Counted from the first letter of the stretch, positions 13,714-35,706 are shown. The stretch: 49,847 nt of DNA from Fidelibacterota bacterium (GCA_013203115.1 JABMQW010000087.1:1-49847), one strand, 5' to 3'. Numbers and translations: made by a program. Notes: generated by a model not told the origin, from the sequence alone.

Positions 13714-13836
13714 TTATTTAGTCTCGGCACAGCCTGACGAGGTTAAAGCAAGAAAACTGGCTATACTACAAATAATTTCAAAAATGAGTATTTGCAGATT
13801 TATCCAGACAAGAAGAATCCCACGTCACATTCACTT

Positions 13837-13910: not shown

Positions 13911-14066
13911 CATGAAAACGTATCTGTATCCGTCAGCGAATAATGCATTGTTAGGTTCAATTTGTTATTCAACGTAATTATATTTGACAAAATCCCCGTT
14001 TTTATTATGTTCCGAGCCCTCCGAAATTGGTTTTGGAACGGAATTCGCAGAAATGGAGAATCTGAA

Positions 14067-15878: not shown

Positions 15879-15959
15879 CGGGCAGCAATATTTTATTATT
15901 CCAGTGCCTAAATATCTACTTTCCTTTCCGAATCCGGATCATTTTATTTAAATAGTATT

Positions 15960-16971
15960 ATGAATGGTTATGAACGAATTAAAGCCGCTCTGGAGGGCAC
16001 CAAGCCTGATTGCACGCCAGTCATTGCATAATTTCATGCTGGCGGCTCGTGAGGCAGGCTACACCATGACCGAATTCAGAGACGATCCCTGGAAAATTGC
16101 CGATGCGTTCATACAGGCAGTTGAAAAATATGAATATGACGGAATATTGGTGGATTTGGACACCGTTACTTTGGCCGGTGCGGTAGGTGTTCCCGTTGAT
16201 TTCCCGGTAGATGAACCCGCCCGTACAATTATTGGGTGCCTCAATTCTTTGGATGATATTGATGGATTACCAGCGCTTGATATCAGTAATTACCGCTATG
16301 TGCAAAACTGGTTAGAAGCGGTTCGGATACTGAAGGATTATTTTAAAAATGAAATTTTTATCCGCGGAAATTGTGATCAAGCGCCCTTTTCGCTGGCCAG
16401 TATGCTGCGAACATCCCAGGAATGGTACACGGATTTGATATTAAATGAGGAACGGGTCTTTCAATTACTTGAGTATTGTACTACTGCCAGTATTCAGTTT
16501 ATTGATCTGATGTCCACGACTGGCGCCGATATGTTATCGAATGGTGACAGCCCGGCCGGCTCTGATCTGATATCGCCTGAAATGTATTCGAAATTCGCTT
16601 TACCATTTGAGCGTCGGCTTGTTGACAGAACACACCAGCATGGATTACTCTATGCGCTGCATATATGCGGAAATACTGACATAATACTTAATCAGATGCT
16701 GGAAACGGGAGCCGACGCTTTCGAGCTTGATTATAAAACTGATGTCAGTCAGGCCAATGATACCTTTACGGGTCAAGTGACCTTCATCGGTAATCTAGAT
16801 CCTAGTGGTGTCCTGGCGCTGGGGTCGGTTGCGGACGTACGCTGCAAGACGGAGGAAATCATCAACATCTTCGCCGATAATCCAAGGTTTATCTTAAATG
16901 CCGGATGTGCCATTCCGCCATCGACACCTTCGGAAAATATTCGTGAAATGGTTCGGATCGCGCATCAGTGA
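15960..16971 (+). pseudogene. Uroporphyrinogen decarboxylase-like (MtaA/CmuA-type) family gene with a 5' frameshift near 16022-16026
   Basis: ATG 15960 gives MNGYERIKAALEGTKPDCTPVI, a typical family N-terminus ('ER..AAL.G..PD..PV'). It continues in the +1 frame as LHNFMLAAREAG...APFSLA...LISPEMY.KFALP...LHICG...GNLDP...FILNAGC.IP..TP.EN. Confidence 0.78.
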
Positions 16972-19784
16972 AGCTAAATCTGACATTAAAGTTATCAATT
17001 GAGCGGTTATTAAAATCTATAGGTGAAATCTTGAGTCCATATACTCCAAAACGGCGACAATTGAAATTGAGCTTTACATTGTTGATTAGTATCATCTGGC
17101 TTTTCCCTGTAGCTGCCCAATCGGTGACAGCATATTGGATAAATTCCTCTGACTCACTGTTCTCCGGAGGTTATGCTGATGGTGAAATTTCCGATCTAAT
17201 GATCGCGAATGATCGCGTCGCTTTCATAATTGGTGCTATAGATCATCCCGGATATTATACCGCCAGTGGAGGGAATATATTGGATGCTGCATCGAGTATT
17301 GATCGGGTCGATGAATTTGGAGAATTATATACTTACTTTAATGACGATTGGCCCCGCCAAGCTGTTTATAATACAATCATGATCATGAACGATGGAGCCG
17401 ATGGTAATCCGGCTGTTATCCGGGCTTCCGGAGTGGACTCGGATAATTCCTCAATCCTCGTTGTTACCAACTATTCATTGGCTGCCAGTGATGATTTTTT
17501 ATCCATTACTACTACCCTGACCAATTCAGGTACGGGCACCATTACTGATTTCGAGCTGGGCAGCGGAATCTATTGGGGTGATTGTCTGAAGTGGGCACCC
17601 GGATACGGCTTTTCATTATCCGGTATTACTTACATGCCCTGGCTGGCAGGGACGTCCAGCCAGTTATCGTATGGTTATTTATCTCCGGATACTACAATGA
17701 TGTGGGGCGATCACGAGGGAGATTGGTCCGACATCAACGTTGGAATCGCAACCATTAACCCCAACGACTCATGTACTTATACCTGCTACTTGATTGTGGG
17801 AGGTAAGGACATAGCATCAGTAGCCACATTGGCTCATATGATCAACGAAATACCTGTCGGATCACTTACTTGTTCGGTTACGGATCAATTAAATGGCGAT
17901 CCTGTTGCTGATGTTAAAATCGAAGTCAGCGACAGTTTAAATTTACCTTATCTCCAAATGGTCACCGATCTTAACGGGCAAGCATTATGTACGTTACCAC
18001 CGGGCATCTGGTCTCTTGAAACCTCAGCATCAGGCTATTCCACGATGGAAATATCTCTCTCAATCAGCTTGGATTCTACCGTGAATTACGACTTTGTTTT
18101 GGTAGAGGATAACACAATACCGGCTACCGGCGATACGTTGACCGTTATACAACGTCCGATACTTAATATCCCAGCGATTGTACTTCCCGGCGATACGCTT
18201 ATGATCGAATGTGAAGCAGATATGTACACAACACACTGGGCTGCTGAACTGCTCTATGGCTCATCACGGATTACAATGGATATTTATAGCGAGGTATATA
18301 ATCCGGCCACGTTGTGGTGGAACATTGCAGCAGGAGTACCCAATGTACCGATCTTTGAATTATATGATCTGAAAGTTACTGCAAGCGGGGGAATCAGCGA
18401 CACCACTGTGAACGCCGTGCATGTTATACCGGAATTCAAGAATGATTACTACTTTGTACATATCACTGATACTCATCTGCCGACTAATATGTATTATTAT
18501 GAATATGGTTCCGATATTGATAGTTCGTCAATCATCGATTTCCGTGAGGTAATCAGGGATATCAATATTATCAACCCGGAGTTTGTTCTACTGACTGGTG
18601 ATTTGGTTAATGAAGGTGAATTGGAAGACTTTCAGAACCGACGTTACTTCACCAAAGCACAAAGAATGCTGACTGAATTAGATGTGCCGGTCTATCTGGT
18701 TTCCGGTAACCACGATCTTGGTGGCTGGAGCGATACTCCACCATCAGATGGTACGGCCCGCCGCACCTGGTGGAAGTTTTTTGGTTGGAATCGTTTAGAT
18801 GATCCGCCAGTAGGAGCGTTATGGTATACCCAAAACTACAGTTTTGACTACGGCCCGGTTCATTATATTGGAATGGAAGCGTATCTTAATTATGACTGGT
18901 GGCGCTGGGGAATTTATGGTTATGAAAGCTTTACGGCTGGTCAGATGCAGTGGCTTTCAGACGAATTGATTGTGGCTTCCGGTAGTTCGGCCAGGGTTCT
19001 ATTCTATCATTTTGATTTTTCAGATCAGATCAATCTCAATCAAATGGGTGTGGAGATGGTTCTTTATGGCCATACTCATCAAAATGGCGGAAGTATCTCA
19101 TCTCCGCCATATAATCTTAGTACGGCATGTACCTGTAGTGGTAGGCGGGCCTATCGGTTGGTACGCGTTTCGAATGGCGTTTTGCACCCATCTTCTACGG
19201 TTTATTCTGGTTCTACTGGAAATAATCTACAGGTGGAATTCCAACCTGCCAATGATGGATCTAATTTTTCGGTGACTGCGGAAATTACTAACTGGCTTTT
19301 TGAATCATTTGAACATGCTCAACTGCGATTTTTCATGCCGGATACGACTGGCCAGGTCACTGTAACCGGTGGAACCTTGCTTCAGGTCGATAATTCTGAT
19401 TCTCTGGCGGTCTATTATATTGGAGTGGATATTCAGCCCTCTTCGACTCAAATTGTAACAGTGTCCCTCACACAAGTCCATACAGAAGATGAGTTTTCAG
19501 CACCTTATTCGTATAAGCTTCACCAAAACTGGCCTAATCCATTTAACCCACTTACGACAATTCGTTATAACATTCCGGAACTGTCCAGTATTACAATAAC
19601 GATCTATGATCTACTGGGCCGGCAGGTGAGAACATTACTTGACCAGGTAGAAGAACCGGGGTATAAATCAATTCAGTGGGATGCAACAAACGATCAAGGT
19701 CAGCCGGTCAGTGCCGGGATATATTTATACCGGATTAACGTTGGTAGTTTTACGCAAACGAAAAAAATGGTGTTATTAAGGTAA
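16968..19784 (+). CDS. Secreted multidomain protein: N-terminal beta domain, carboxypeptidase-regulatory-like domain, metallophosphoesterase and FlgD-Ig/T9SS-like CTD
   Basis: Metallophosphoesterase motifs HITDTH, TGD, GNHD and GHTH; CTD 'QNWPNPFNPLTTIRY...IYDLLGRQV...WDA...GIYLYR...KKMVLLR'. Probable start is TTG 17061 (MKLSFTLL...VAA-Q). Confidence 0.82.
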   Translation: MKLNLTLKLSIERLLKSIGEILSPYTPKRRQLKLSFTLLISIIWLFPVAAQSVTAYWINSSDSLFSGGYADGEISDLMIANDRVAFIIGAIDHPGYYTASGGNILDAASSIDRVDEFGELYTYFNDDWPRQAVYNTIMIMNDGADGNPAVIRASGVDSDNSSILVVTNYSLAASDDFLSITTTLTNSGTGTITDFELGSGIYWGDCLKWAPGYGFSLSGITYMPWLAGTSSQLSYGYLSPDTTMMWGDHEGDWSDINVGIATINPNDSCTYTCYLIVGGKDIASVATLAHMINEIPVGSLTCSVTDQLNGDPVADVKIEVSDSLNLPYLQMVTDLNGQALCTLPPGIWSLETSASGYSTMEISLSISLDSTVNYDFVLVEDNTIPATGDTLTVIQRPILNIPAIVLPGDTLMIECEADMYTTHWAAELLYGSSRITMDIYSEVYNPATLWWNIAAGVPNVPIFELYDLKVTASGGISDTTVNAVHVIPEFKNDYYFVHITDTHLPTNMYYYEYGSDIDSSSIIDFREVIRDINIINPEFVLLTGDLVNEGELEDFQNRRYFTKAQRMLTELDVPVYLVSGNHDLGGWSDTPPSDGTARRTWWKFFGWNRLDDPPVGALWYTQNYSFDYGPVHYIGMEAYLNYDWWRWGIYGYESFTAGQMQWLSDELIVASGSSARVLFYHFDFSDQINLNQMGVEMVLYGHTHQNGGSISSPPYNLSTACTCSGRRAYRLVRVSNGVLHPSSTVYSGSTGNNLQVEFQPANDGSNFSVTAEITNWLFESFEHAQLRFFMPDTTGQVTVTGGTLLQVDNSDSLAVYYIGVDIQPSSTQIVTVSLTQVHTEDEFSAPYSYKLHQNWPNPFNPLTTIRYNIPELSSITITIYDLLGRQVRTLLDQVEEPGYKSIQWDATNDQGQPVSAGIYLYRINVGSFTQTKKMVLLR

Positions 19785-21843: not shown

Positions 21844-24039
21844 TTGCCCTTTAATCAAACCGGCAAAATAAATCTGGTAATTGTTGCCACCATTCACGAA
21901 AATGATACGATTAGCAAATTGAAGCAACTACTAACATTGACCTTCCTTTTGATCTTAATTGCTGGTTTACTCCGAGCCCAGTTTGCTATCGATGTTTTTG
22001 ATAAATATACTTCGGTCAGTCAATTAGGTCTGACGGTGACCAATTACGGTGTACTGGGGAATGGCTGGAATAAAATTGATGGCCAAATACTTCCGTCATG
22101 CCAATATCGCCAGCATACGGAAATCCTACGGGAACAGATCGAGCATTTTTCCTTTGCTGGTCTCTGGATTGGCGGTAAAGTGAGCGGGGACCGGAGAGTA
22201 AGTACGGCTATCGTAGATGGCGTTTTTGAATCCGGGGTAGAAGGATTCGAATTCTTTGCAGCCTCCGAAATTAAAACCAGGTCTTCCATTTCATCTACTT
22301 CAGATGACCCAATGGCAAAATATTTTTCCCTCGATGCCGTGTCCCATCAGGATATGCTGATGGATTTCCAGGATTATGGACAAGAGGTTGTTAACCACGA
22401 ACCATTGGGTATTAATGTTCACTTAGAGACCTATTCCTGGAATTTTACCTTTGCAGATGCATTCGCTATTCTTAACTATACCATCACTAATGCCTCAACT
22501 GATACAATCGAAGATATTTACGCCGGACTCTGGGTGGATGCCTCGATCGGTAACATGAATTATACCAGTATTTACGAGCCCGGTGGCGGATTCTCCTGGT
22601 ATGATAACCTGGATGGCTTCGATGAAACTGTCGATGACGCCGATTTTACCCGCGATATAGCTTTTCAATATGATGCCGATGGTGACGACGGTTGGTCCCA
22701 GTCTTATATCGGTATTACTATGCTGGGCAGTAACGTGCCAAGACCTTACATTGATTCTTATTACCACCAGTGGACTTGGACAGGATCAATAAATACAAAT
22801 TACCCTGCTTATGCCATGCCCATGACCGATATCGAGCGCTATGAAACAATGAGAAACAGTGTGCCAAAGGATCCAACCGGAACTACCGGAACCTATACCA
22901 ATGGTTACCCTGATATCCCAAACAGTTGGCTGTTTCAGCTTTCTTCCGGTCCCCTGGGATCGCAACCCGCAAATATGGACTCCACCAGTTGGGAGTTGCC
23001 CCCGGGAGAATCATGCCAGATCGTGTTCGCGGTTGTTGCGGCACCCTGGGTTGGTGGTGGTTCAGACAGCGAATTCCGTCGGGCCGCTCTACATGTGAAT
23101 ATGGATTGGGCGCAAAAAGCCTATGATGGCGAGGATAAAAACCGCAATAATGTGCTCGACGAAGGTGAGGATACTGATGGCAATGCTATATTAGATCGGT
23201 ATATTCTACCGGAACCACCACCGAAACCGAATATGACGGTCGAAGTAGGTGATCAGATGGTAACAATCTATTGGGCCAATAACGCGGAATCATTTATCGA
23301 CCCGGTGAGCAAGGAAAAGGATTTTGAAGGTTATCGCATTTACAGTGCGCACAAGACCGTGGGTGGTGAAATGGCGGAATTCACCCTGCTGGGTGAATAT
23401 GATATTTATAATGAGAATGACCAGAACATTGGCTACAACACCGGGCTTGATCTGATCAGGATCAAGAATGAATTCGGCGAACCGGATTCGGTTAAGATTG
23501 ATGACCGTAATTACCATTACAAATTTGAAAATAAAGGTGTAAAAAACGGTTGGTTGAATTATTATTCAGTCACCGCCTACGACCGGGGCGATCCTGAAGC
23601 AAACCTGGAAAGTTTGGAGAGTTCAGTTACTGATAACCGCCGGGGACATTATGTTTATCCCGGTCTGTCCGCCAGCGATTCGTCTTGGGTCGGTGAACCC
23701 AGTGTTTATCCAAATCCCTACCGCGGCCAGGCGCTCTGGGACGGTTACGGCAGCCGGGACCGGATGATCTGGTTCCAGAATCTACCGGTTCGCGCTGAAA
23801 TCCGTATTTTCACGCTAGCCGGTGACCTGGTGGATATAATCCAACACGATTCAGGATACCGCGGTGAGGACATTAAAAATATTGATAGCAATAAAGACCC
23901 GATTATGAGTGGTGGCGAGCACGCCTGGGACCTGATCAGTCAATATGACCAGGCAATTGCATCAGGTTTATACCTTTTTACGGTAAAAGATGATTTCACT
24001 AAAATAATCAAAGAAGGTAAATTTCTAATAATCAAGTAA
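21844..24039 (+). CDS. Conserved secreted protein with Ca-binding-like loops, an FN3-like domain and a divergent CTD
   Basis: Probable start TTG 21919 (MKQLLTL...LRA-Q). DKNRNNVLDEGEDTDGN Ca-loop pattern; PPPKP...VTIYW...DFEGYRIY...YYSVTAYD FN3-like region; C-terminal VYPNPY...IRIFTLAGDLV...WDL...IASGLYLF...GKFLIIK. Confidence 0.8.
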   Translation: MPFNQTGKINLVIVATIHENDTISKLKQLLTLTFLLILIAGLLRAQFAIDVFDKYTSVSQLGLTVTNYGVLGNGWNKIDGQILPSCQYRQHTEILREQIEHFSFAGLWIGGKVSGDRRVSTAIVDGVFESGVEGFEFFAASEIKTRSSISSTSDDPMAKYFSLDAVSHQDMLMDFQDYGQEVVNHEPLGINVHLETYSWNFTFADAFAILNYTITNASTDTIEDIYAGLWVDASIGNMNYTSIYEPGGGFSWYDNLDGFDETVDDADFTRDIAFQYDADGDDGWSQSYIGITMLGSNVPRPYIDSYYHQWTWTGSINTNYPAYAMPMTDIERYETMRNSVPKDPTGTTGTYTNGYPDIPNSWLFQLSSGPLGSQPANMDSTSWELPPGESCQIVFAVVAAPWVGGGSDSEFRRAALHVNMDWAQKAYDGEDKNRNNVLDEGEDTDGNAILDRYILPEPPPKPNMTVEVGDQMVTIYWANNAESFIDPVSKEKDFEGYRIYSAHKTVGGEMAEFTLLGEYDIYNENDQNIGYNTGLDLIRIKNEFGEPDSVKIDDRNYHYKFENKGVKNGWLNYYSVTAYDRGDPEANLESLESSVTDNRRGHYVYPGLSASDSSWVGEPSVYPNPYRGQALWDGYGSRDRMIWFQNLPVRAEIRIFTLAGDLVDIIQHDSGYRGEDIKNIDSNKDPIMSGGEHAWDLISQYDQAIASGLYLFTVKDDFTKIIKEGKFLIIK

Positions 24040-24055
24040 ACAAAAGGAGTTAAGC

Positions 24056-27000
24056 ATGAAACTAAAACTGTTATCAGTTTTTTTGTTGGTAATGACTGTG
24101 TCATTTGCCCAGGTGATTACTGTTGCCGAAGCACGGGCAACGGCTGTTGGGCAAACGGTCACTACGTCCGGCATTGTAACCACGATTAATTTTGCCAGTA
24201 GCAATTCCAGTGAATATGTTATCCAGGATTCTACTGGCGGTATCGTTCTTTACAAATACGGAATTGACTACAATCTGCTCAGCGGTGATTTGGTTGAAGT
24301 AACCGGTGAAATTGATGATTACAGCGGCAAGATGGAAATTATACCAGTGGATTCTGCAGATGTTACCGTTGTTAGTTCAGGTAATGATTTGCCGGCCTTC
24401 CAGCCGGTTACCGTTACCGGTTTACTGGCCAATGGCGAATCATTAGAAAGTGAACTAGTAGAAATCTACAATGTAGATATTGTTGGTGGTGATGACTGGC
24501 CGGCAGATAATGTCAATGCCAACATTACCATTTCCGATGATGATTCGGTTAATACGGTAACTCTCCGTATTGATCGCCAGACTGACCTGGATGGTGGCAC
24601 GGCGCCTACCACTACCTTTGACGTGAGAGGGGTAATTTCACAGTACACTTCCGGAGCTGCCGATGTTGGATATCAGATTCAACCGAGAGGATTTTCAGAT
24701 ATCACAACTCCCGATCCGGGTATTATCACGGTTGCTGCCGCAAGAGCAACCGCTGAAGGTACCACCGTCACAACCCGCGGCTTTATTACTACTCCCAGCT
24801 TCAGCGGCTCCAGTTCTGATTATGTTCTGCAGGATGGTACGGCCGGAATCGGTATCTATGGCAGCGGTATTACGCCCACTCTGAATCCGGGTGATTTTAT
24901 CACAATTACCGGTTCAATCGGATCATATGGTGGTAAGATTCAGATCGGTCCAAGCGCTGCAGGCGATATGACCGTACTTGCTACTGGCGCTTACCTGCCG
25001 GCATTTCAGGAATTGACAATTGCTGAAATCCTGGCTGCCGGTGAAGATTATGAATCAGAGTTGGTGACCATAATACTGGCATCAATTACTGGTGGTGATG
25101 CCTGGCCAAGCTCAGGTTCAAACGCCAATGTCACAATCACTGATATTAGTGATTCGTCGCTAACGATGCGGATCGACAAAGATACTGACCTGGATGAAAA
25201 CTTGGTACCCCAGGGGACATTCAATGTCTCTGGTGTTATTGATGAATACTACGCGTACCAGATCAAGCCGCGCTATTATTCCGATATTGAAATCCTTGGT
25301 GATGTTTCACCGGTGATTTTGGATATGGTGCATACCCCCGAGAATCCGATACCCACTGATATTGTGACAGTTACTGCAGATGTAATTGATGATGGAACGG
25401 TAACAGTGGAATTGAATTACCAGGTTGGCACTGGTGCATTTTCCACAGTTGCCATGGTGGCTGGTATCGGGTTCAGTTATTCCGGCGATATTCCGGCTCA
25501 GGTTGATGGCTCATTCGTCAGCTATTTTATCAGCGCTGATGATGGTGTAAACACGGTCGTGCATTCTGATACCGCCCTGTATGCTGTCTGGGAACCTAGT
25601 GATTTAACACCGATCTATAACATTCAGTACACTACTGATCCCAGCGGCGATTCTCCTTTCCTGGATCAGGAAGTTACCATTGGTGGTGTAGTCACTGCCG
25701 AATTCTGGGGTAGTTCCTCGAATCGCTATATCCATGTCCAGGATGCGGACAGTGCCTGGAGTGGAGTGGTTGTTTTCGAATATGGTGGCTGGGATGGTTT
25801 TGACTTCACGACGCCCCTCGGTGATACGGTACACACAGTAGCTGAAGGCGACAGTGTAGTTCTGACTGGTACGGTTAATGAATATTGGGGTTTAACCCAA
25901 ATATTAGATGTAACTGAATTTGTGGTTTACGGAACAGCCCTGCAACCATTTGATCCAATTACTGTAACTGCTGCTGAAATAATGACTGCTGGTACTATGG
26001 CTGAAGCCTATGAAGGTATGCTGGTAAAAGTGGCAACTGTAACTGTCGACGATCCCGACCTGGGATTCGGAGAATGGTCGTTTACCGATGGAACTAATTC
26101 CATCATGGTCGATGATATCTGGGACTATTATTTCGATCCGGCCGATCAGGTATTGGATGAAATTGTTGGTGTCATGACCTATAGTCATAGTAATACTAAA
26201 CTGCTGCCTAGACTGGCCCGTGACATCGTTCAGACTGGTATTTCCCGTTTCCAGCGCATCCAGCAGGTGCTCTACAGTGACCTCCTGAAGACAGCTGGCG
26301 ATGCTACCTCTGACATGTCAACGGCATTTGGTGATACGGTTACGCTTACCGGTATCGTTACCATGCCTACCGGCCTCAGTTACGCCGGTGACGGTATCAA
26401 ATTCGTTTTCGCCGATCCTAAAGGCGGTCCCTGGAGCGCAATTCTCAGCTATGCTCCCGACAGTTCCGCTTACCCGGTGCTCTATGTAGGTGACAGCATC
26501 GTTGCCACCGGCTATATTGACGAATACAATACGCCCCCGGCTAATATGACCGAACTGTTCATTACCCAACCAATAAACCTGGTAGGAATCGGTTCAGCGC
26601 CGCCCATGACTTATGTTGATGCCGCTGATCTGATGTATCCCACCACGGCTGAACAGTGGGGTAATGTTATGGTCACAATCGGTGCTTCTGAGGTAGTGGA
26701 GCACGGTGCATTGTCATCCAATGATGGTGGCATCAAAGTGAGCGATGGTACCGGCGAAGTCTGGATTGACCATGATTCGGATGATATCTGGAATCTGTGG
26801 AATAATAACGGTTTCCCGGCTATCGGTACCCAGATCGATTCAATCCGCGGCTGGATTTACCACCACTTCGGGGCCTATGCCGATTCCACTACTTATAAGC
26901 TGGTTCCGCTGTGGGAAGCCGACATCGCCCTCAGTGAAGTTGGTGTCGACAACGAACTCCAACCTGAGAGCTATGCCCTCTATCAGAATTACCCCAACCC

Positions 27001-27244
27001 ATTCAACCCGGAGACCCAGATCCATTTCCGTCTGGCTGCCGCTGAAAAGGTAACCATGGTAATTTATGATATTAGAGGCCGCCAGGTCCGGACGCTGGTT
27101 AAAGATAATTTCAATGCCGGCCTCCACACAGTAACCTGGAATGGTCAGAATAACAAGGGCGTAAACGTTGCTTCAGGCATGTATATCTACCGGATAAAAG
27201 CCGGTAATTTCGTAGCTAAACAGAAAATGCTCTTATTGCGCTAA
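24056..27244 (+). CDS. Secreted protein with tandem OB-fold-like repeats (YhcR/ExeM-type), an Ig-like domain and a FlgD-Ig CTD; no catalytic domain seen
   Basis: AAGGAG RBS at 24044-24049; signal peptide ending SFA-Q. Four repeats of 'VT..G.VT...QD...G/S.....GD.V..TG.I.eY' each paired with 'E..E..LV...(V)SDG...D......G......(Y).I.PR...DI'. CTD QNYPNPFNPET...QKMLLLR. Confidence 0.85.
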   Translation: MKLKLLSVFLLVMTVSFAQVITVAEARATAVGQTVTTSGIVTTINFASSNSSEYVIQDSTGGIVLYKYGIDYNLLSGDLVEVTGEIDDYSGKMEIIPVDSADVTVVSSGNDLPAFQPVTVTGLLANGESLESELVEIYNVDIVGGDDWPADNVNANITISDDDSVNTVTLRIDRQTDLDGGTAPTTTFDVRGVISQYTSGAADVGYQIQPRGFSDITTPDPGIITVAAARATAEGTTVTTRGFITTPSFSGSSSDYVLQDGTAGIGIYGSGITPTLNPGDFITITGSIGSYGGKIQIGPSAAGDMTVLATGAYLPAFQELTIAEILAAGEDYESELVTIILASITGGDAWPSSGSNANVTITDISDSSLTMRIDKDTDLDENLVPQGTFNVSGVIDEYYAYQIKPRYYSDIEILGDVSPVILDMVHTPENPIPTDIVTVTADVIDDGTVTVELNYQVGTGAFSTVAMVAGIGFSYSGDIPAQVDGSFVSYFISADDGVNTVVHSDTALYAVWEPSDLTPIYNIQYTTDPSGDSPFLDQEVTIGGVVTAEFWGSSSNRYIHVQDADSAWSGVVVFEYGGWDGFDFTTPLGDTVHTVAEGDSVVLTGTVNEYWGLTQILDVTEFVVYGTALQPFDPITVTAAEIMTAGTMAEAYEGMLVKVATVTVDDPDLGFGEWSFTDGTNSIMVDDIWDYYFDPADQVLDEIVGVMTYSHSNTKLLPRLARDIVQTGISRFQRIQQVLYSDLLKTAGDATSDMSTAFGDTVTLTGIVTMPTGLSYAGDGIKFVFADPKGGPWSAILSYAPDSSAYPVLYVGDSIVATGYIDEYNTPPANMTELFITQPINLVGIGSAPPMTYVDAADLMYPTTAEQWGNVMVTIGASEVVEHGALSSNDGGIKVSDGTGEVWIDHDSDDIWNLWNNNGFPAIGTQIDSIRGWIYHHFGAYADSTTYKLVPLWEADIALSEVGVDNELQPESYALYQNYPNPFNPETQIHFRLAAAEKVTMVIYDIRGRQVRTLVKDNFNAGLHTVTWNGQNNKGVNVASGMYIYRIKAGNFVAKQKMLLLR

Positions 27245-27248
27245 ACTA

Positions 27249-27294
27249 CCCCCCCCCAAGGCCCCCCACATAAAAATGGTGGGGGGTCGGGGGG
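27249..27294 (+). promoter_or_regulatory. Very GC-rich intra-operon stem-loop without a U-tract (putative mRNA stabiliser or attenuator)
   Basis: C9 (27249-27257), CCCCCCAC (27262-27269) pairing with GTGGGGGG (27279-27286), then GGGGGG (27289-27294). Confidence 0.6.
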
Positions 27295-27310
27295 ACAAAT
27301 TCCATAATAA

Positions 27311-29053
27311 ATGATAACGTTGAGAAAAACCAGCCTAGCAATCCTGCTGGGAATTGCCCTGTGGTCATGTTCGCTCTGGGAGTATGCTGACCCTTCCGAC
27401 CCGCTGACCAATGCGGCCCCTGAGACCTATCTCACGGTAGTTGCCAACGACACCCTTTTCCCGGTTGAATCAGCTGACTCCAGCTGGTACTATATAATTG
27501 GTTTGGACAGCATTCCGATCCAGGGTCCCGATACCCTGACTGATGCTTTCGCCACTATCTCTACCAGCCGCCAGGTCTTGAACTGGTGGGGGGAAGATAG
27601 CGATGGTGAAGTAATTGGCTATCTATATAAATGGAATTCGGATGCTGACTGGACCTATACCACCAGGGAATCGGGAATATTTTATGTTCCTATCCGTACC
27701 GTTCTGGATGTGTTCTGGTTTGATATCAAGGCAATCGATAATAGCGCCCGTTGGGATTATGACCGTCCGGCCACGGCCGTGAGCGATTCCGCCGATTTTG
27801 AATATATATCCGATATCGGTGATACGATTAATGTTCTCGATGCTGCAGATGTTTTTCTTGACGAAGGAGCGCTGCCCGGTATCCAGACTCCCCTGGGCGC
27901 CCCCTTACGGCCATTGCAGGATAACGAATTATTCTACCTGCCGCCAACAGAAACTGAGGGCGCAGTGGACCTGTCCTCAGCAAAACTTGTTTTTCCAATC
28001 AGAAATTCCAGTCCCGAAATTTCTTTCCGCTACCAGAGCAATCCAACCTACGTTGCCCAGGAAGTAAGAAATGACACGGCCTATACCTTCCCAACCCGGA
28101 CCTTTGTCTGGGACCTTTATGACCTGGATGGACTGGAGACAGTCACCAATATTTATTATGCACTTGATGATACCTGTGACACCTGCTGGAATACCCTGGA
28201 TGCTGCCGCTTATACCAGCTATACGCTTACTGGTCTCAAGCCCGGCTTCCGTACTATTTATCTTAAAACCAGCGATATTGCCGGGGCCGAGAGCAAGATT
28301 ATCCAGTACCCGGATACTTCAAATACCGATGAACCAGATTTCTGGAAAGTAATGCCGGTTGTTGGCAATCTGCTATTGGTAGATGATTACCCTCTGGATA
28401 GTCAAAACAATTCCAATAGATGGTACAAGTCCGTTCTGGATTCAGTAGTGGGTAGTGGGAATTACTCGACCTGGGAAATCGGCTACCGTTTGCCGTTTTC
28501 AACTGTCGATATATCGGCTAATCTGAAATATTTTGATCATGTTATCTGGTATACGGCATACAATGGTATCGAAACCTACCGCGAGGCTGAATCCAATATT
28601 AATTCCTTTGTGCTGGGGGGCGGCAACTTATTTATGATCGCCTCTGAATTGAAGGATACGACGTTCACCTGGTTTCCGCTGACTGATACCTATGTTGTAA
28701 ATCCCAATGGTCGTTTGTGGCCGGGCCGAATTCTGGAATCAGGGATTTCTGCGGAATATGACGTAGCTGTGGCAAAAATGATTGCCATCCGTTTGCGTGC
28801 TTTCGAACCGGATTCAGCCCTGTTCGTTAACTATCAGGAATTATACCACCTGCAGGATCCCACGGCCCAGGATCAATGGGTCGGCAACCCGGTCATGGCT
28901 GGTATGGGCAGATTTCAGGTTTCCGCCACCAGGCTATCGGGCCTAGCTGGGTTAATGACAATCACCCTCCACGATGGTTATGATTCCACCCTGGAAGAAA
29001 CTGGGATCATTAACTTTTTCGATTATTTAATTAATGAGGCCTTTGTCCAGTGA
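27311..29053 (+). CDS. Uncharacterised outer-membrane lipoprotein with Ig/FN3-like modules
   Basis: Lipobox ALWSC; 'NAAPETYL...LNWWGEDSDGEVIGYLY.W' pattern; later alpha/beta segment 'LLLVDDY...DHVIWYT...GGNLFM'. Confidence 0.75.
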   Translation: MITLRKTSLAILLGIALWSCSLWEYADPSDPLTNAAPETYLTVVANDTLFPVESADSSWYYIIGLDSIPIQGPDTLTDAFATISTSRQVLNWWGEDSDGEVIGYLYKWNSDADWTYTTRESGIFYVPIRTVLDVFWFDIKAIDNSARWDYDRPATAVSDSADFEYISDIGDTINVLDAADVFLDEGALPGIQTPLGAPLRPLQDNELFYLPPTETEGAVDLSSAKLVFPIRNSSPEISFRYQSNPTYVAQEVRNDTAYTFPTRTFVWDLYDLDGLETVTNIYYALDDTCDTCWNTLDAAAYTSYTLTGLKPGFRTIYLKTSDIAGAESKIIQYPDTSNTDEPDFWKVMPVVGNLLLVDDYPLDSQNNSNRWYKSVLDSVVGSGNYSTWEIGYRLPFSTVDISANLKYFDHVIWYTAYNGIETYREAESNINSFVLGGGNLFMIASELKDTTFTWFPLTDTYVVNPNGRLWPGRILESGISAEYDVAVAKMIAIRLRAFEPDSALFVNYQELYHLQDPTAQDQWVGNPVMAGMGRFQVSATRLSGLAGLMTITLHDGYDSTLEETGIINFFDYLINEAFVQ

Positions 29054-31827
29054 GAAACCGATTTATTGTCGCTGCAATAATCCTGTCGGCTGCCTGCGGA
29101 CAGATCGGGACAATTACCGGTAAAATCACCAATAAAGCCAATAACGAACCGTTGGTCGGTGTCAATGTTATTGTCAAGGGCACCTATTACGGTGCTGCTA
29201 CCGGCCTGGATGGCTTTTATACGATCACCAGAGTAGCTGCCGGCACATTTAACGTCGAAGCCTCAATAATCGGTTATAAAATATTACTGCAGACCGGAAT
29301 CGAAGTGACTGCTGCCAACCGGACCAGGCTTGACTTTGAAATGGAGGAAACAGTTCTGACCCTGGGGGAGGAAATCGTCGTTCTTGGTAAAAAGCCCCTT
29401 TTTGATCCGGATGCTACATCTTCAATGGTCATTATCCGCAGTGAAGATATCGCCAATAAAGTCGTCTCCGGTGTCGAGGATATTTTAGCCGAACAGATCG
29501 GTGTCACCAAACAGGATAATGAAATTCATATCCGTGGTGGCCGCGTTGACGAAAGCCTCTTTATTGTGGATGGTTTTTCGGTAAAAGATCCCCTTTCCGG
29601 CTATTCCGGTAATCTTTTTATTAATGCGGAAGCAATCGAAGTATTGGAAATTGTAACCGGTGGTTACAGCGCCGAGTACGGACAGGCCATGTCCGGTGTC
29701 GTTAATATAAAATTGAAAGAAGGCCGCGATAAATTTGAGGGTGCGGTCAAATACGCCAGTGATAATTTCGGTTTGAACCAGGATGCCATAACCCATTACA
29801 ATACCGACCGATTTGAATTTAATTTAGGTGGTCCATCGCTGCTCCTTGAAAAACTGCCACCTTTGCTGGGACTGGACCTGCCGGGCAAGTTTTCCTTCTT
29901 CATTAATGGCTACAGTAAAATCTGGGATAGCAATTTGCCTGTTGCCGATAAAATATTCCCGCACCGCAACTGGTCCGCCCCGGCTGGAATTTCTGAAGAA
30001 ACAGCCGATAAACTGATGCAGAAACTGGCTCCCCGGGAAAACAATGACTGGCACCTGCTATATAAACTGACCTGGGATATAGACGCCCAGAAGAAACTGG
30101 GCTGGTCTTATGATATTTCCATGAATATTAACCAGGGCTTTTTTATGTCCCGGGCCTTTTCCAATACTTATTTCCCTTATCGCTACCAGGAAATCCTGGA
30201 TTATTATAATACGATTACCCGGGAAACCAGGCTTATGAATCTGAATTTCACCCATACTCTGAATACCCGTTCATTTTATACCTGGACCCTGGGCCGGTTT
30301 ATTACCATGGAACATAGCGCCGTTCGCGATCTGCACTGGACCGAGTACAGCGAGCGACTTGACCTGAAGCCGATTAATTATATACTTCTGGATCAGGAGG
30401 GCAATACCCGCGTTACTTACGGTGATGAATTTTATGATACCGGTTTCGCCCCCGAATGGTATGATGTTTTCAGTGATAACTGGCGTTTTGATTTGGATTG
30501 GACTTACCAGACTCAGAAGCGGCATAAAATCAAGGCCGGGCTGGAGAATAGTATTACCGAAATGCAGGTCCTTGATATCGAAGATCCCTGGACCGGCACC
30601 ACCGGTTTAGGCGCTAATTTTGATATGTATAAAGCCCAGACTATGTACGGTGCGCTCTACCTTCAGGACCGGATTACCTTCGAAGGTATGACTCTAAACA
30701 TTGGATTGCGTTATGATTACTGGTTCCCGGGGAAATATGTTGAGAATGCAATAAATGACCTCGATGCAGTTATAATCACCGATGAAGCGCGGCAGAAGTT
30801 CAAGGATGAAACCTTCGAATTTATGGGCTATCGCGGCAAAGGTCGGATCAGTCCCCGTTTCGGTATATCCCATCCGGTTACCAATACCGATGTACTATAT
30901 TTCTATTATGGACATTTTTCTCAGTTACCCACCTTCCAGTACGTATATGCCAAACTGGATGCTTCATCCCAGTCGACATACCAGGTCTTTGGAAATCCGA
31001 ACCTGAATCCCAAGACCACTGTTCAATATGAAATCGGCCTCAAACACAGTTTCAGCGAGGACCAGGTACTGGAGCTAAAGGCTTACTGGAAGGATATGTT
31101 TGATTATGAAACATCTCAGACAATAACCCCCTCCAATCCCAAATATGCTTACCTGCGTTTCAACATGTATTTCAATGCCGACTATGCTCGGTCCCGCGGA
31201 CTTGAATTCATTCTCAAAAGCCGCATCTTTACCAACCTATACGCCGATATCAATTTCAATTATTCAATCATTACCGGAAAAAGTTCATCGCCGTTGGACA
31301 ATCTATTGGTTCAAGCCGGTGAATTACGTGAAAAACCGCTGGGCGAAAATTTTATGAGCTGGGACCGGCCGATCCAGTTTTTCACTAATATTTCCTATAA
31401 TCATCCCAGCAATTGGGGGGCTTCCGTCCGGCTGGATTATCGCAGTGGCCGTCGCTATACGGTCTCGATTCCCGGAACAAAGGAATTTCCTGATGGATTC
31501 CGCGAAGAAGGTGGTATAGTTTATTATGTCGGCACTAGAGATGATGATCGGCCTTTCAGTCAACTGGCCACAGTATCTGAAAAAACGATCGATATAAAAT
31601 TGTTTAAATCTTTTAAAATGAACAAAATGCGGATGAAGCTATATCTGGAGGTAGAAAACCTGCTTGATCTAAAGATTCCACGTCGCATCAACCCCTTTAC
31701 CGGGGAAGGCTTCGATCCCGGAGTAATATATGCTTATAGTTTGTTGGACAGCCCCAATCCTAATTATGATCCTTCAAGAATTCGTTCGCCCCGCTCCTCC
31801 ACCATGGGCATTCAGGTAATATTCTGA
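29050..31827 (+). CDS. TonB-dependent receptor with N-terminal carboxypeptidase-regulatory-like domain
   Basis: GTITGKIT...EPLVGVNV; plug IHIRGGRVDE...GGYSAEYGQAMSGVVNI; barrel motifs GLRYDY, ISPRFGISHP and GNPNLNPKTTVQYEIG; C-terminal Phe. GTG overlaps the upstream TGA. Confidence 0.92.
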   Translation: MRNRFIVAAIILSAACGQIGTITGKITNKANNEPLVGVNVIVKGTYYGAATGLDGFYTITRVAAGTFNVEASIIGYKILLQTGIEVTAANRTRLDFEMEETVLTLGEEIVVLGKKPLFDPDATSSMVIIRSEDIANKVVSGVEDILAEQIGVTKQDNEIHIRGGRVDESLFIVDGFSVKDPLSGYSGNLFINAEAIEVLEIVTGGYSAEYGQAMSGVVNIKLKEGRDKFEGAVKYASDNFGLNQDAITHYNTDRFEFNLGGPSLLLEKLPPLLGLDLPGKFSFFINGYSKIWDSNLPVADKIFPHRNWSAPAGISEETADKLMQKLAPRENNDWHLLYKLTWDIDAQKKLGWSYDISMNINQGFFMSRAFSNTYFPYRYQEILDYYNTITRETRLMNLNFTHTLNTRSFYTWTLGRFITMEHSAVRDLHWTEYSERLDLKPINYILLDQEGNTRVTYGDEFYDTGFAPEWYDVFSDNWRFDLDWTYQTQKRHKIKAGLENSITEMQVLDIEDPWTGTTGLGANFDMYKAQTMYGALYLQDRITFEGMTLNIGLRYDYWFPGKYVENAINDLDAVIITDEARQKFKDETFEFMGYRGKGRISPRFGISHPVTNTDVLYFYYGHFSQLPTFQYVYAKLDASSQSTYQVFGNPNLNPKTTVQYEIGLKHSFSEDQVLELKAYWKDMFDYETSQTITPSNPKYAYLRFNMYFNADYARSRGLEFILKSRIFTNLYADINFNYSIITGKSSSPLDNLLVQAGELREKPLGENFMSWDRPIQFFTNISYNHPSNWGASVRLDYRSGRRYTVSIPGTKEFPDGFREEGGIVYYVGTRDDDRPFSQLATVSEKTIDIKLFKSFKMNKMRMKLYLEVENLLDLKIPRRINPFTGEGFDPGVIYAYSLLDSPNPNYDPSRIRSPRSSTMGIQVIF

Positions 31828-32831
31828 TGAAATCAAAGATTTCAATATTTCTACTTTTAACGCTGACCATTGCCAGTGGCCAAAATCTCTTTCCCATTCT
31901 CGGTGGTCAGCGGGTGGGCACCTCCGTATTTACATTCCTGAAAATTGGTGTCAGCGCCCGGGCCGCCGGTATGAGCGAAGCGGTGGTTGCCCTGAACCAG
32001 GATGCCGCCTCCATTTACTATAATCCCGGCTCAGTTGCCCAGTTTAGCGGGACTGAAATTTCCGCTTCCCGGATTCAATGGCCAGCGGATATTAATTATG
32101 ATTTCATCAGTTTTACCCACCACTTATTTCAAAGACATTATATCGGTCTCAGTGCCGGTATCCTGCATATGGAGCCCATGCCGGAAACCACGGTATACAT
32201 GCCTCACGGTACTGGTAATTATTTTATATTCCAGAACCGGTTTGTCGGTCTCACCTACGGCGCCCGCATGACGGACAGGTTTAGTTTCGGCGTTACCTTT
32301 AAGCATGTCCAGGAAAACCTGGCCGGTTCAAAAATGAATGGCATGCTGATTGATATGGGAACATTTTACTGGACTGGTTTTCGCACGCTCAGGTTCTCGG
32401 CTGCTCTCTCCAATTTTGGTTCCCAGGCCCGGCCTGACGGTTATTTCAGTAAACAGTATATCGACCATAGCTCAGGCGAAGAAGCCATCAACGATTCTGC
32501 ATCATTTACCCAATTTTCGCCGCCGACGGTATTCAGAGTTGGATCGGCTATGAATATAATTGATAATGAATTCCAGGTTATGACGGTAGCTTTGCAATTG
32601 AATCATCCGGTTGATAATTCTGAATCGATTGTACTGGGAACAGAATATATTCTTTTAAAGACGCTTAGTCTGCGAGCCGGCTATAAATTCAACCGGGTCG
32701 AAGAAGATTTCTCATTGGGGGCTGGGTTATATATCCCCTTGGGCGGTCTGAAATTGCGGGTAGATTACGCTTATACAAACTTTACTTACTTAACAGACCC
32801 ATCCCGGCTAACGATCGGATTGTCATTCTAG
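31827..32831 (+). CDS. PorV/PorQ-family (UPF0164, FadL-like) outer-membrane beta-barrel
   Basis: FLKIGVSARAAGMSEA...DAASIYYNPG is the family signature; ends RVDYAY...RLTIGLSF. ATG overlaps the upstream TGA. Confidence 0.88.
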   Translation: MKSKISIFLLLTLTIASGQNLFPILGGQRVGTSVFTFLKIGVSARAAGMSEAVVALNQDAASIYYNPGSVAQFSGTEISASRIQWPADINYDFISFTHHLFQRHYIGLSAGILHMEPMPETTVYMPHGTGNYFIFQNRFVGLTYGARMTDRFSFGVTFKHVQENLAGSKMNGMLIDMGTFYWTGFRTLRFSAALSNFGSQARPDGYFSKQYIDHSSGEEAINDSASFTQFSPPTVFRVGSAMNIIDNEFQVMTVALQLNHPVDNSESIVLGTEYILLKTLSLRAGYKFNRVEEDFSLGAGLYIPLGGLKLRVDYAYTNFTYLTDPSRLTIGLSF

Positions 32832-34210
32832 TGTTAAATAAATTATCTCATGAAACCAGTGTTATTCAGCCTCTATTTACATGGTTCATGGTAATCATTT
32901 TTCTGACCGGTTGCGTAGAAAAAATGATTCTGCCAGAGGATCTGCTTGAGGATTCGGGGACCGCCACTGTTCCTTCCACCAATGATACCACCTATTTGCA
33001 GGTTAACCCGGTCTGGGATGCTGTAATTGGTTTTATGACGCCCATGGATTTATCAATTGCCCGGGACGGTCATATTTTTATCGCTGATTCGGCAGCAAAC
33101 AGCATTTTCGTTCTGGATCAGGGTGGCGTCAGGGTGGAAGGTTTCGATATTTTCATTAACCTCCAAGATTCTGATGGCCTTCCAATTAGTCCGATTGATG
33201 TCGATGTGGACTCAAAGATGAACGCTTTTTTTATCGATGGCAGTAACCGGATTTTCCGCTGGAACCTGTATTGGAACTCTACAGGTATTGATTCTGTTCT
33301 CACATCGGCGGTGTTCAAGGATACCCTCACCGGCGACACCATAACCACAGAATATGGCACCCTGGCGTGGTTTGAACAGCTCAACTTTCAGGATATGACA
33401 ATCGTGGAATACCACTGGACCGCCGACCTCGCATTGCTGGACAGCTATTTGAAACCACATCTATTCTATGATGGGGCCAATGATCCTGATTATGAGTCGT
33501 CCTGGTTCTCGGCAATCACGACTGTTGAAGATACCAGGAATCATTTATTTGTCACCGACTACGCCAACGACCGGATTCTAGAAATCTATTATGCCCGGAA
33601 TAACTTTATTAAACTCTCATCCGGTGAATACGTCTGGTCTCACTTCGGTGTTAAAATTAGTGAACCTGAGGATTACGGTACCGGCTCAGGGACTGTCAAC
33701 AAACCACTTGGCCTGGACGTGGATTATGAAAATAATCTTTATTACTGCCAGACTGGTGAAGTTTTTTTGGTGCATAAAATATATCCGGATTTTTCAAAAG
33801 GTTATTTGGACTACTTATCCGCTTTCCAGCTCTTCAAGCATGATATTATGGATTTAGGCCGCTTCAGCGCCCCCCGGGATGTGGCCGTAGACGATAATCA
33901 GATGATCTATGTTTCAAACAGTGGCGCCCGGGAAATCCAGGTTTTTAATTCTGATGGCAGTTTTTTCAAAAAAGCCGGTATCCTAGAATACCGAGTGGAT
34001 CGAGAACTTGGCTATCCCACCGATTCGTTAGCCGTTGTGGTCGATTCAACGGAATATTTTTATCTGGTGGAGGAACCAGGATTACTCCTGAATCCAGCCG
34101 GAATCACGGTTGATGACCGGGGCGTCATCTACGTCTGCGATCCGGATCAGTCCAGCATATTCCGTTTCCGTTTGTCGAATGTATTGGATGAGGATCTCCA
34201 ACCCGAGTGA
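32831..34210 (+). CDS. NHL-repeat (beta-propeller) lipoprotein
   Basis: Lipobox FLTGC; NHL repeats P.DLSI..DGHIFIADS, KPLGLDVD, FSAPRDVAVDDNQMIYVSNSG..EIQVF and NPAGITVDDRGVIYVCD. The start codon is uncertain. Confidence 0.82.
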   Translation: MLNKLSHETSVIQPLFTWFMVIIFLTGCVEKMILPEDLLEDSGTATVPSTNDTTYLQVNPVWDAVIGFMTPMDLSIARDGHIFIADSAANSIFVLDQGGVRVEGFDIFINLQDSDGLPISPIDVDVDSKMNAFFIDGSNRIFRWNLYWNSTGIDSVLTSAVFKDTLTGDTITTEYGTLAWFEQLNFQDMTIVEYHWTADLALLDSYLKPHLFYDGANDPDYESSWFSAITTVEDTRNHLFVTDYANDRILEIYYARNNFIKLSSGEYVWSHFGVKISEPEDYGTGSGTVNKPLGLDVDYENNLYYCQTGEVFLVHKIYPDFSKGYLDYLSAFQLFKHDIMDLGRFSAPRDVAVDDNQMIYVSNSGAREIQVFNSDGSFFKKAGILEYRVDRELGYPTDSLAVVVDSTEYFYLVEEPGLLLNPAGITVDDRGVIYVCDPDQSSIFRFRLSNVLDEDLQPE

Positions 34211-35691: not shown

Positions 35692-35706
35692 TGAATTTTC
35701 TCTCGC

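Follow-up and report, generated by a model that had tools for sequence, protein, structure and literature searches.

Introduction

What is understood of TonB-dependent uptake with surface partners comes almost entirely from SusCD-type systems, in which the partners are lipoproteins. In P. gingivalis, barrels of the PorV/PorQ family hold a protein by its retained C-terminal domain (CTD), as in the PorQ-PorZ and PorV-PorU pairs, and in Flavobacterium the genes for PorP/SprF-type barrels adjoin those for the particular type B CTD cargo that the barrels serve. For extracellular DNA, one report (Sharan et al., PNAS 2025) describes the ddb locus (ddbABCDEF) of gut Bacteroidales, which is needed by B. 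thetaiotaomicron to deplete exogenous DNA and in which DdbD, a DUF5689 protein, is proposed to bind DNA as the partner of DdbC, a TonB transporter (PMC12478041). A second report names the homologous pair of the DUF5689 protein RA0C_RS04920 and the receptor RA0C_RS04915 as essential for transformation of R. anatipestifer (PMC8459023). Here we describe a cassette of six co-oriented open reading frames (ORFs), g1 to g6, at positions 21844-34210 (plus strand) of a 49,847-nt contig, hereafter the window (JABMQW010000087.1; C47 in our numbering). The contig comes from a Marinimicrobia/Fidelibacterota (SAR406) metagenome-assembled genome (MAG) of 2.64 Mb (GCA_013203115.1; 244 contigs, 88% complete), and the sources of close relatives of its proteins name them Candidatus Marinimicrobia, Neomarinimicrobiota or Fidelibacterota. 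The cassette encodes two secreted proteins (g1 and the OB-fold protein g2), two lipoproteins (g3 and g6), a TonB-dependent receptor (g4) and a barrel of the PorV/PorQ family (g5). We consider it somewhat better than an even bet that this operon is an outer-membrane capture-and-import machine linked to the secretion system of type IX (T9SS), probably for extracellular nucleic acid, in which the tail of g1 is retained on g5.

Comparison with described systems

Compared with ddb and the RA0C_RS04915/04920 pair, the cassette has a common core: a TonB receptor co-encoded with a DUF5689/OB-fold surface protein (g2, separated from g4 by g3), and nuclease-type genes in or near the locus, in the case of the cassette beside 22 of 40 loci. 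Several features set it apart from ddb. First, g4 falls in another clade than the five DUF5689-adjacent Bacteroidota receptors of our tree. Second, g2 is a T9SS cargo of 1062 residues with four modules and a CTD, in contrast to the short, lipoprotein-type DUF5689 proteins that we found beside receptors in Bacteroidota (loci L066-L068). Finally, the cassette adds a PorV/PorQ-like barrel, g1, g3 and an NHL lipoprotein, and it has no nuclease inside the six genes; the endonuclease/exonuclease/phosphatase (EEP) and metallophosphoesterase genes lie here 2-20 kb upstream, and DNA use by this organism is a prediction.

The cassette also resembles SusC/SusD (RagA/RagB) loci, being an operon, similar to a polysaccharide utilization locus (PUL), of a CarboxypepD_reg-bearing TonB receptor, surface binders and accessory lipoproteins. 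In contrast to those loci, g4 scores far under the SusC/RagA cut-off (TIGR04056, 58.9 bits against 368.25, N-terminal part only), which leaves it outside a SusC/SusD pair, and its partners carry T9SS CTDs rather than lipid anchors. The lack of SusD, noted earlier from this DNA without database searches (hereafter the sequence-only reading), held up: SusD_RagB (PF07980) matched none of the six proteins and nothing else in the 88%-complete genome, and it did match a B. thetaiotaomicron control.

With PorQ-PorZ and PorV-PorU, the likeness is that g5 scores higher on PorQ than on PorV and that the CTD of g1 is modelled on g5. The differences are that g5 and g1 lie under the PorQ and PorZ cut-offs, that a TonB receptor is encoded along with the pair, of which six paralogous copies exist, and that g1 is modelled as a beta-sandwich and not as a propeller, the fold of PorZ. 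As in the PorP/SprF case, a dedicated barrel is encoded beside the T9SS cargo that it would serve, and g5 differs in barrel family (PorV/PorQ), in CTD class and in its link to a TonB receptor.

Results

A PorV/PorQ-family barrel paired with a divergent C-terminal domain

Profile scores assign g5 to the PorV/PorQ family of barrels and set it apart from both the housekeeping PorV and the housekeeping PorQ. It matched the family model NF033709 over its full length (173.7 bits, cut-off 90; profile positions 1-326 of 326) and failed both equivalogs, with 48.4 bits on PorV (NF033710, cut-off 250) and 78.6 bits on PorQ (NF033711, cut-off 220). It was also below the Toluene_X cut-off, and a sequence search of solved structures returned only PorV (6h3i_F, E 0.083). 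Seven members of the PorV/PorQ family exceed the cut-off in the genome, and six of them, including g5, are non-canonical; the best PorV-family match is a canonical PorV-like protein on contig C37 (240.8 bits). Two other identities were tried and dropped. For g1 and g5 as the housekeeping PorZ and PorQ, better candidates were found on C103 (PorZ, 101.6 bits) and C155 (96.7 bits, the best PorQ match of the genome, itself under the cut-off). The second was BamG, a 14-stranded FadL-type barrel whose extracellular loops bind a surface protein and which acts as a pillar for an extracellular assembly (PMC12578637, PMC12611786). BamG belongs to the FadL/Toluene_X family, and it has a lipoprotein partner, BamH, and serves BamA rather than a TonB receptor. 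Separately, weak PorV-family matches on C229 (8923-9708 and 19148-19729) share the contig with three EEP-family ORFs (2200-3120, 3117-5057 and 14590-16344), and this region (~2200-19700) may be a second nucleic-acid locus.

The g1 protein matched no Pfam family, and its C-terminus had no PF18962 or TIGR04183 match; hence it is not a type A CTD by these models. In the AlphaFold2 (AF2) model (predicted local distance difference test score, pLDDT, 65.4), g1 consists of a large beta-sandwich (residues ~75-400), an Fn3-like domain and a CTD sandwich, which occupies residues ~595-706 of the 706-aa form. Its weak match to the PorZ CTD (E 1.6e-4) is unspecific, as many ordinary CTDs of the genome match the same part of that profile. 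In the alignment of g1 orthologues, invariant motifs rich in Asp and Gly stand out (D252, D254, G255, D256 and G258; G404, E405, D406 and N408 to E417 and D418), and these segments (~252-258 and 404-418) resemble calcium-binding loops.

A hidden Markov model (HMM) of the g1-type CTD was built from the C-termini of 30 g1 orthologues. At E<1e-6 it matched seven of the 3446 ORFs of the genome, and the next match (0.0023) was already among ordinary CTD proteins. The seven are g1, the partners of five other barrels (one each on C36, C167 and C24, two on C215) and a protein on C75, for which the contig ends before the downstream gene; g1 and the five partners adjoin the six non-canonical PorV-like barrels. 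Because of these seven matches and their barrel neighbours, the g1-type CTD can be classed, at the level of sequence, as a distinct and divergent CTD subclass associated one-to-one with the extra barrels. The partner proteins of the six extra barrels are large and secreted, and their last ~110 residues resemble the end of g1. Where the contig allows, a TonB receptor is encoded directly upstream of the CTD protein (C36, C215 twice and C75); the modules on C167 and C24 are cut by contig ends. The order in these paralogous modules is receptor, g1-like protein, often a lipoprotein, and then the barrel. The N-terminal parts of the g1-type CTD proteins differ within the genome, as would be expected for interchangeable binding heads on a common anchor.

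A complex of g5 (residues 19-334) and the C-terminal part of g1 (residues 430-706) was modelled in three runs with three controls, each chain having its own alignment. The interface score ipSAE was 0.92 in the three runs, and the best of the three controls reached 0.00; at least 89% of the contacts were common to the runs, and the partner pLDDT was at least 77. In calibration, 58 of 80 solved complexes and 2 of 110 mismatched pairs attained this mark, counts that apply here approximately, as the alignments used were our own. The modelled contacts of g5 are confined to g1 residues 595-706, that is, to the CTD. Positions conserved in at least 90% were enriched at the interface in both g5 (24/50 versus 61/266; one-sided Fisher p 4e-4) and g1 (27/44 versus 73/233; p 2e-4), in a test that used the same alignments that fed the model. 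We propose that g5 may act as a socket for the g1 CTD; the model speaks to the geometry of binding and not to its permanence. The CTD-barrel interface looked for on the strength of the sequence-only reading was thus predicted. Its idea of an operon-specific barrel that tethers the binding proteins gains from both the pairing and the model as regards g1, the beta-sandwich protein that these two tie to the barrel, rather than as regards the OB-fold protein g2, which has an ordinary type A CTD.

Conservation of the six-gene set

For the Marinimicrobia, g3 was the search probe, as it has the fewest paralogues, and loci were chosen by the g3 match only. Of the 201 genomes that make up the phylum sample, 121 had a match (77 of the 140 good-quality ones), as did none of 13 from a family with ~1-Mb genomes. 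Twenty loci (±10 kb) were fetched from the top and the middle of the match list. All 20 hold the complete set, and 19 keep the order of the window; L044 is permuted (g3-g6, then g1-g2). Minor irregularities are a g1 in two ORFs (L031), a g2 in three ORFs (L037), three small ORFs between g1 and g2 (L040) and a g1 cut by the contig end (L035 and L045). Identity to the window in these loci is 44-92% for g1, 41-94% for g4 and 39-91% for g5. In six of the loci (L033, L035-L038 and L041) a conserved five-gene run, absent from the window, follows g6; in L033 it encodes a 317-aa protein of no family, a protein that matches an outer-membrane beta-barrel model weakly and below its cut-off, a YtfJ-like protein, a NUDIX hydrolase and QueG.

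A second sample, of 201 genomes from the GTDB phylum to which a Bacteroidales MAG belongs, was searched with the g1 profile. The profile matched 114 of the 201 genomes, and 64 matches were near full-length at E≤1.3e-120. Among 20 loci fetched, g1, a g2-like gene, a g3-like gene, g4 and g5 occur in the same order in 17 and are followed by an ORF of 360-445 residues, which is an NHL protein in both loci scanned (L085 and L094). L103 had no g3 match, L096 (66% GC) had neither a g3 nor a g5 match under a crude ORF caller, and L102 is a plain module of receptor, g1-like protein and barrel. In a protein atlas, the nearest g1 clusters are in Ignavibacteriota and Fidelibacterota, which we use as a lead only. 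With the set recurring in 20/20 and 17/20 loci of the two samples, the arrangement is far beyond chance, and the co-conservation called for by the earlier reading is borne out. That reading had also placed the cassette, as a PUL analogue, in non-Bacteroidota lineages of the FCB group, and this limit has to be widened, the cassette being present also in the phylum with the Bacteroidales MAG.

The OB-fold protein and its probable link to nucleic acids

The g2 protein matched DUF5689 (PF18942) in two stretches with 67.9 bits (cut-off 28.6) and is the sole DUF5689 gene of the genome; it also matches the OB fold PF01336. Its repeats were read from the sequence by eye, and a self-BLAST gave no repeat pairs. 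On the ExeM/NucH nuclease model NF033681 it reached 60.4 bits against a cut-off of 300, over profile positions 41-114 of 546, which places it outside that family, and no nuclease domain was found in it by Pfam and NCBIfam scans. The CTD is a canonical type A domain by TIGR04183 (41.7 bits, cut-off 23) and PF18962 (30.9, cut-off 27). The cargo with CTDs foreseen by the sequence-only reading was therefore confirmed in its ordinary form for g2; the CTD of g1 is missed by the standard models and falls instead into the divergent subclass described above. On its domain matches, g2 is a candidate nucleic-acid binder.

The contexts in which DUF5689 occurs elsewhere bear on this assignment. Bacteroidota were entered through a search with a Saprospiraceae DUF5689 protein (P0125), which matched only CTDs in five loci. 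Five Bacteroidota genomes have a receptor followed by a DUF5689 gene (L066, L067, L068, L069 and L072). The short DUF5689 proteins of L066-L068 have lipoprotein-type signals; that of L066 combines DUF5689 with DUF5017, the same make-up as in RA0C_RS04920, and L067 is from a Flavobacteriaceae genome. Exo_endo_phos_3 genes lie alongside the pairs in L067 and L068, and L069 has a fusion of DUF5689, PLD nuclease and CTD at 9609-11789. When short DUF5689 relatives of g2 were sought, 14 proteins came up, none of them from Bacteroides. Near the cassette itself, a gene of lamin-tail domain (LTD), DUF5689, PLD and CTD follows the cassette in L087 (13886-17203) and L089. As judged from their domains, the fusions in L069 and L087 appear to tie DUF5689 to nucleic-acid cleavage.

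Other neighbours of the cassette are similar in chemistry. In L032, a nuclease-type gene of EEP, LTD and CTD lies directly upstream of g1, and BLAST relatives hold the same position in L036, L037, L038, L040, L041 and L043; L033 has two EEP genes near the cassette. A metallophosphoesterase with a CTD lies near the cassette in the window, and its orthologues, ~50% identical, adjoin the cassette in L034 and L044; the edges of these two loci also carry relatives of the 1425-2669 EEP protein (60-63% identical). An NPP-type phosphodiesterase follows the cassette in L094, L095, L097, L099 and L104. Judged from these genes, the neighbours vary with lineage and seem to keep one chemical theme.

The receptor, the lipoproteins and the secretion system

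From its domain matches, g4 is identified as a TonB-dependent receptor, with a CarboxypepD_reg-like N-terminal domain (PF13715/PF13620), a plug (PF07715, 44.7 bits, cut-off 23.9) and a barrel. The barrel part gave weaker matches: PF25183 with 24.6 bits (under the cut-off of 30), TIGR01785 in part (E 1.3e-23, residues 108-799) and PhuR (8the_A, E 4.8e-8).

The lipoprotein g3 matched no Pfam or NCBIfam family. Its AF2 model (pLDDT 76.5) has a tandem of carbohydrate-binding-module-like (CBM-like) and Fn3/Ig parts, followed by a GATase1/ThuA-like alpha/beta domain at residues 350-580. In Foldseek it resembles Fn3 tandems, and the levan utilisome surface protein 8aa2_G is weakly alike (rank 49). 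The C-terminal domain gave VIA Z-scores of 14.8/14.0 to a GH42 domain and ThuA-like proteins, with a root-mean-square deviation of ~3 Å over 185-194 residues. In the protein atlas, g3 falls in Fidelibacterota-only clusters, with a lead to DUF4960 at 0.90. Amidotransferase activity is unlikely, because no Cys besides that of the lipobox is invariant or nearly so in the orthologous sequences; g3 is perhaps a surface scaffold or binder. A 627-aa ORF on C13 (2562-4445, minus strand) joins a segment similar to g1 365-486 (48%) to a domain similar to g3 235-578 (45%) and a type A CTD. Owing to this fusion, the C-terminal domain of g3 can also be regarded as T9SS cargo, and the fusion argues that the domain may act outside the cell. 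The second lipoprotein, g6, has NHL repeats (PF01436, 52.1 bits), and its nearest solved sequences are the NHL domains of Thin, TRIM71 and Brat. Both lipoproteins are probably accessory parts of the machine.

The genome appears, from its gene content, to possess a T9SS, and two of the core parts named by the sequence-only reading, SprA and PorU, were located. SprA (767 bits for the frame, C36), the PorU sortase (571 bits, C138), the canonical PorV and at least 50 T9SS CTD matches were found. GldM (TIGR03517) had no match in the genome, a negative that carries no information, as the model matched none of the control genomes either.

Discussion

In the mechanism that we propose, the T9SS would export g1 and g2. 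The g1 protein would keep its CTD and stay plugged into g5 next to g4, as PorZ does on PorQ, and its beta-sandwich body would lie beside or over g4, where Bacteroidia place SusD. The g2 protein would be displayed on the surface and bind nucleic acid, which would be cut by secreted nucleases and phosphodiesterases encoded nearby, and the fragments would enter through g4, the proposed import channel, on TonB energy.

Several observations weigh against this proposal. First, the receptor does not group with the DUF5689-adjacent receptors of Bacteroidota. A tree of 29 rows unites the g4 orthologues in a single group (Shimodaira-Hasegawa-like approximate likelihood ratio test, SH-aLRT, 100), which is joined to the PorV-module receptors of the genome (89) and split (97) from five DUF5689-adjacent Bacteroidota receptors (99), among which two other receptors nest; the tree took in these five and left out the published DdbC and RA0C_RS04915 sequences. 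An approximately unbiased (AU) test rejects a grouping of the g4 orthologues with the five (ΔlnL 367, p 1e-55), where the test is post hoc, the group having been named after the tree was seen, the penalty is inflated by the two nested receptors, and the tree is a quick one. Because g4 lies outside the DUF5689-adjacent receptor group, the link of the cassette to ddb appears to run through g2 and not through the receptor, and we read the cassette from these sequences as the widespread module of receptor, CTD protein and PorV-like barrel joined to OB-fold cargo, not as a descendant of ddb. Second, the signs of the substrate are uneven. Domain scans showed no nuclease among g1-g6, and the four g2-like proteins scanned from the second phylum sample all have a CTD and no DUF5689, with one weak OB hint. 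On the favourable side, BLAST queries detected a nuclease- or phosphodiesterase-like neighbour in 22 of the 40 cassette loci, or in 18 of 36 once the four loci from which the queries were taken are set aside; the other 18 of the 40 showed none with these queries. The same queries found 10 ORFs in the 2.64-Mb genome, or ~0.07 per 20 kb, three of the ten being on the contig of the window; this background was taken from a single genome, and genomes that are related do not count independently, so the comparison is an indication and no test. In addition, the N-terminal domain of g1 and g3 have folds that look carbohydrate-related, and there are glycoside hydrolase genes upstream. Third, the position of g1 as a lid over g4 in place of SusD is a guess. 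Structures of PorV with the translocon and with substrates have been solved, and the modelled complex may pass owing to its likeness to such PorV-cargo structures rather than to a permanent anchor.

The second group of observations can be taken further, to the same architecture with another ligand, such as a glycan, a glycoconjugate or another polymer, for which the OB-fold protein would be a general binder. We regard this as unlikely, and it is the alternative that survives best. The beta-sandwich of g1 resembles the N-terminal domain of GH116/GH94 enzymes, g3 has the CBM-like and Fn3 parts, the weak 8aa2_G likeness and the DUF4960 lead noted above, genes for GH97, GH31 and an alpha-amylase lie upstream in the window, and the g2-like proteins without DUF5689 would also fit. 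However, the fold matches are weak and to non-catalytic domains (g1 in Foldseek, E 3.4e-7, query TM-score (TMq) 0.23). Moreover, the glycoside hydrolase neighbours were not seen in the other 20 Marinimicrobia loci, where the EEP-LTD-CTD and metallophosphoesterase genes recur, and DUF5689/OB folds are tied to nucleases in every context examined (the PLD fusions of L069 and L087 and Exo_endo_phos_3 in L067 and L068). The nucleic-acid substrate suggested by the sequence-only reading is therefore kept in part: DUF5689 in g2 and the nuclease and phosphodiesterase neighbours elsewhere speak for it, and an adenosine deaminase relic that had been cited in its favour is lost (see below).

It is improbable, in our view, that g5 is a mere cargo-specific shuttle or secretion helper for g1, g2 or both, without a lasting receptor complex, and that the genes are linked by joint use. 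Such a role would agree with the description of PorV as a shuttle (in a reference cited in PMC12578637) and with a model that reports binding and not permanence. Against it, a canonical PorV is already present on C37, six barrel paralogues, each accompanied by one g1-type CTD protein and a TonB receptor, go beyond what shuttling alone would readily explain, and the g4/g5 and g5/g6 overlaps suggest fixed stoichiometry. Still less probable is DNA uptake that serves natural transformation and not nutrition, the role proposed for the receptor-DUF5689 pair of R. anatipestifer, which is reported to be essential for transformation (PMC8459023). A ComEC-type gene is present on C139, but ComEC is common, being matched in 10 of 14 control genomes; the recurrent neighbours of the cassette are degradative enzymes, and g4 stands outside the clade of DUF5689-adjacent receptors. 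Least probable of all is a housekeeping envelope machine for outer-membrane biogenesis or T9SS attachment, since the wide single-copy conservation across two phylum samples and the precedent of FadL-type barrels as structural pillars (BamG-BamH in the Bacteroidota BAM, PMC12578637 and PMC12611786) are set against a cassette that is missing from 80 of 201 phylum-sample genomes, including all 13 of the ~1-Mb family, better PorQ and PorZ candidates elsewhere, a g5 that is over the PorV/PorQ and under the Toluene_X cut-off, and paralogous modules whose N-terminal domains vary like those of uptake loci.

Returning to the capture of nucleic acid by a g1-g5 anchored complex, its elements are in part known already, namely TonB transporters with surface partners, anchoring by a retained CTD, and DUF5689 in connection with DNA uptake. 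The system had been called undescribed by the sequence-only reading; this does not apply to the substrate idea, which is in print for DdbC/DdbD and RA0C_RS04915/04920 (PMC12478041, PMC8459023). The combination, with its T9SS/PorV-like anchoring, appears undescribed, and a literature search over titles and abstract openings found no TonB receptor operon with its own PorV/PorQ-like barrel. If a T9SS-delivered partner is held on a small barrel of its own, two machineries that have until now been studied separately would be connected. We also put forward, tentatively and with less than even confidence, a broader proposal. PorV/PorQ-family barrels might be a general modular socket that docks T9SS-exported, CTD-retaining proteins onto TonB transporters in FCB bacteria outside the well-studied Bacteroidia, as a protein-anchored alternative to SusD-type lipoproteins; the six-gene form might be a conserved DNA/RNA uptake route of SAR406/Marinimicrobia and Ignavibacteria-like lineages and a principal means by which very abundant bacteria of the deep ocean gather dissolved nucleic acids. 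The cassette is kept in a second FCB phylum sample and across the Marinimicrobia, an ocean lineage that is abundant and has hardly been cultured. Should nucleic acid be the ligand, these would be candidate genes for the use of dissolved DNA/RNA, a large marine pool of phosphorus and nitrogen, and the proposed complex of g4, g5, g1 and g2 can be tested directly.

Gene layout and neighbouring features

The coordinates of the cassette and of the accompanying phosphoesterase-type genes are collected in Table 1.

Table 1. Cassette genes, g2 modules and phosphoesterase-type genes of the window.
Feature	Position	Strand	Description
g1	21844..24039 (as listed)	+	~706-aa secreted protein with likely start TTG 21919
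g2	24056..27244	+	1062-aa T9SS cargo, four OB-fold-based modules and type A CTD
g2 modules	residues ~20-215, 223-412, 515-725, 730-960; CTD 979-1059		first two are DUF5689, clear tandem repeats
g3	27311..29053	+	580-aa lipoprotein, lipobox LWSC
g4	29050..31827	+	925-aa TonB-dependent receptor
g5	31827..32831	+	334-aa PorV/PorQ-family outer-membrane barrel
g6	32831..34210	+	459-aa lipoprotein, lipobox LTGC, NHL-repeat beta-propeller
Secreted metallophosphoesterase	16968..19784	+	938 aa, type A CTD; PF00149 and PF18962; two genes upstream of g1
EEP family protein	1425..2669	+	PF03372
Second EEP family protein	9143-10618		PF03372

The six co-oriented genes and the overlapping stops and starts of the last four, as given by the sequence-only reading, were verified, and family scores upheld its domain calls for g2-g6 (OB folds with CTD, lipoboxes, Plug, PorV/PorQ and NHL). 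The g3 and g4 genes overlap by 4 nt (GTGA), and 1 nt is common to g4/g5 (TGATG) and to g5/g6 (TAGTG); the intergenic gaps are 16 nt (g1-g2) and 66 nt (g2-g3). Because of the tight spacing and the overlapping stops and starts, g1-g6 most likely form one operon. For g1, the start at TTG 21919 is more likely than the listed TTG, as it yields a signal peptide and the orthologues have ~700-715 residues. In a scan, promoter-like sites numbered 40 (31.9±6.6 expected) and terminator-like sites 20 (14.7±4.3 expected), an uninformative outcome. Twelve sequencing runs contain part of the stretch, with no RNA run among them; four freshwater-metagenome DNA runs from one study cover 96-97% of its words.

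Downstream of g6, where the adenosine deaminase relic had been placed, no such relic is present, and the next two genes lie on the minus strand. One (34396-35691) encodes 431 residues that match DUF5074 weakly and carry a T9SS CTD of type A; the other (35707-37743) encodes a BtuB-like TonB receptor (TIGR01779, E 1.7e-17, below the cut-off). Searched in six frames with PF00962 at E<=1, the genome gave a single match, on C103. The minus-strand pair (34396-37743) may be another receptor with a T9SS-delivered rather than a lipoprotein surface partner.

Upstream of the cassette, a phosphoesterase cluster consists of the EEP gene at 1425-2669, an ADP-ribosylglycohydrolase (2729-4255) and a metallophosphoesterase (4313-5149). 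A DDE transposase (DUF4372 and DDE_Tnp_1) at 5497-6663 separates it from a glycoside hydrolase cluster of GH97 (6990-9059), GH31 (10676-13312) and an amylase (14184-15878), within which the second EEP gene lies. The secreted metallophosphoesterase and the 1425..2669 EEP protein are possible accessories of the cassette. Farther downstream, two GHL10-family proteins are encoded at 41460-44732 and 46693-48594, one of them (1090 aa) fused to a zinc carboxypeptidase M14 and one with a T9SS CTD.

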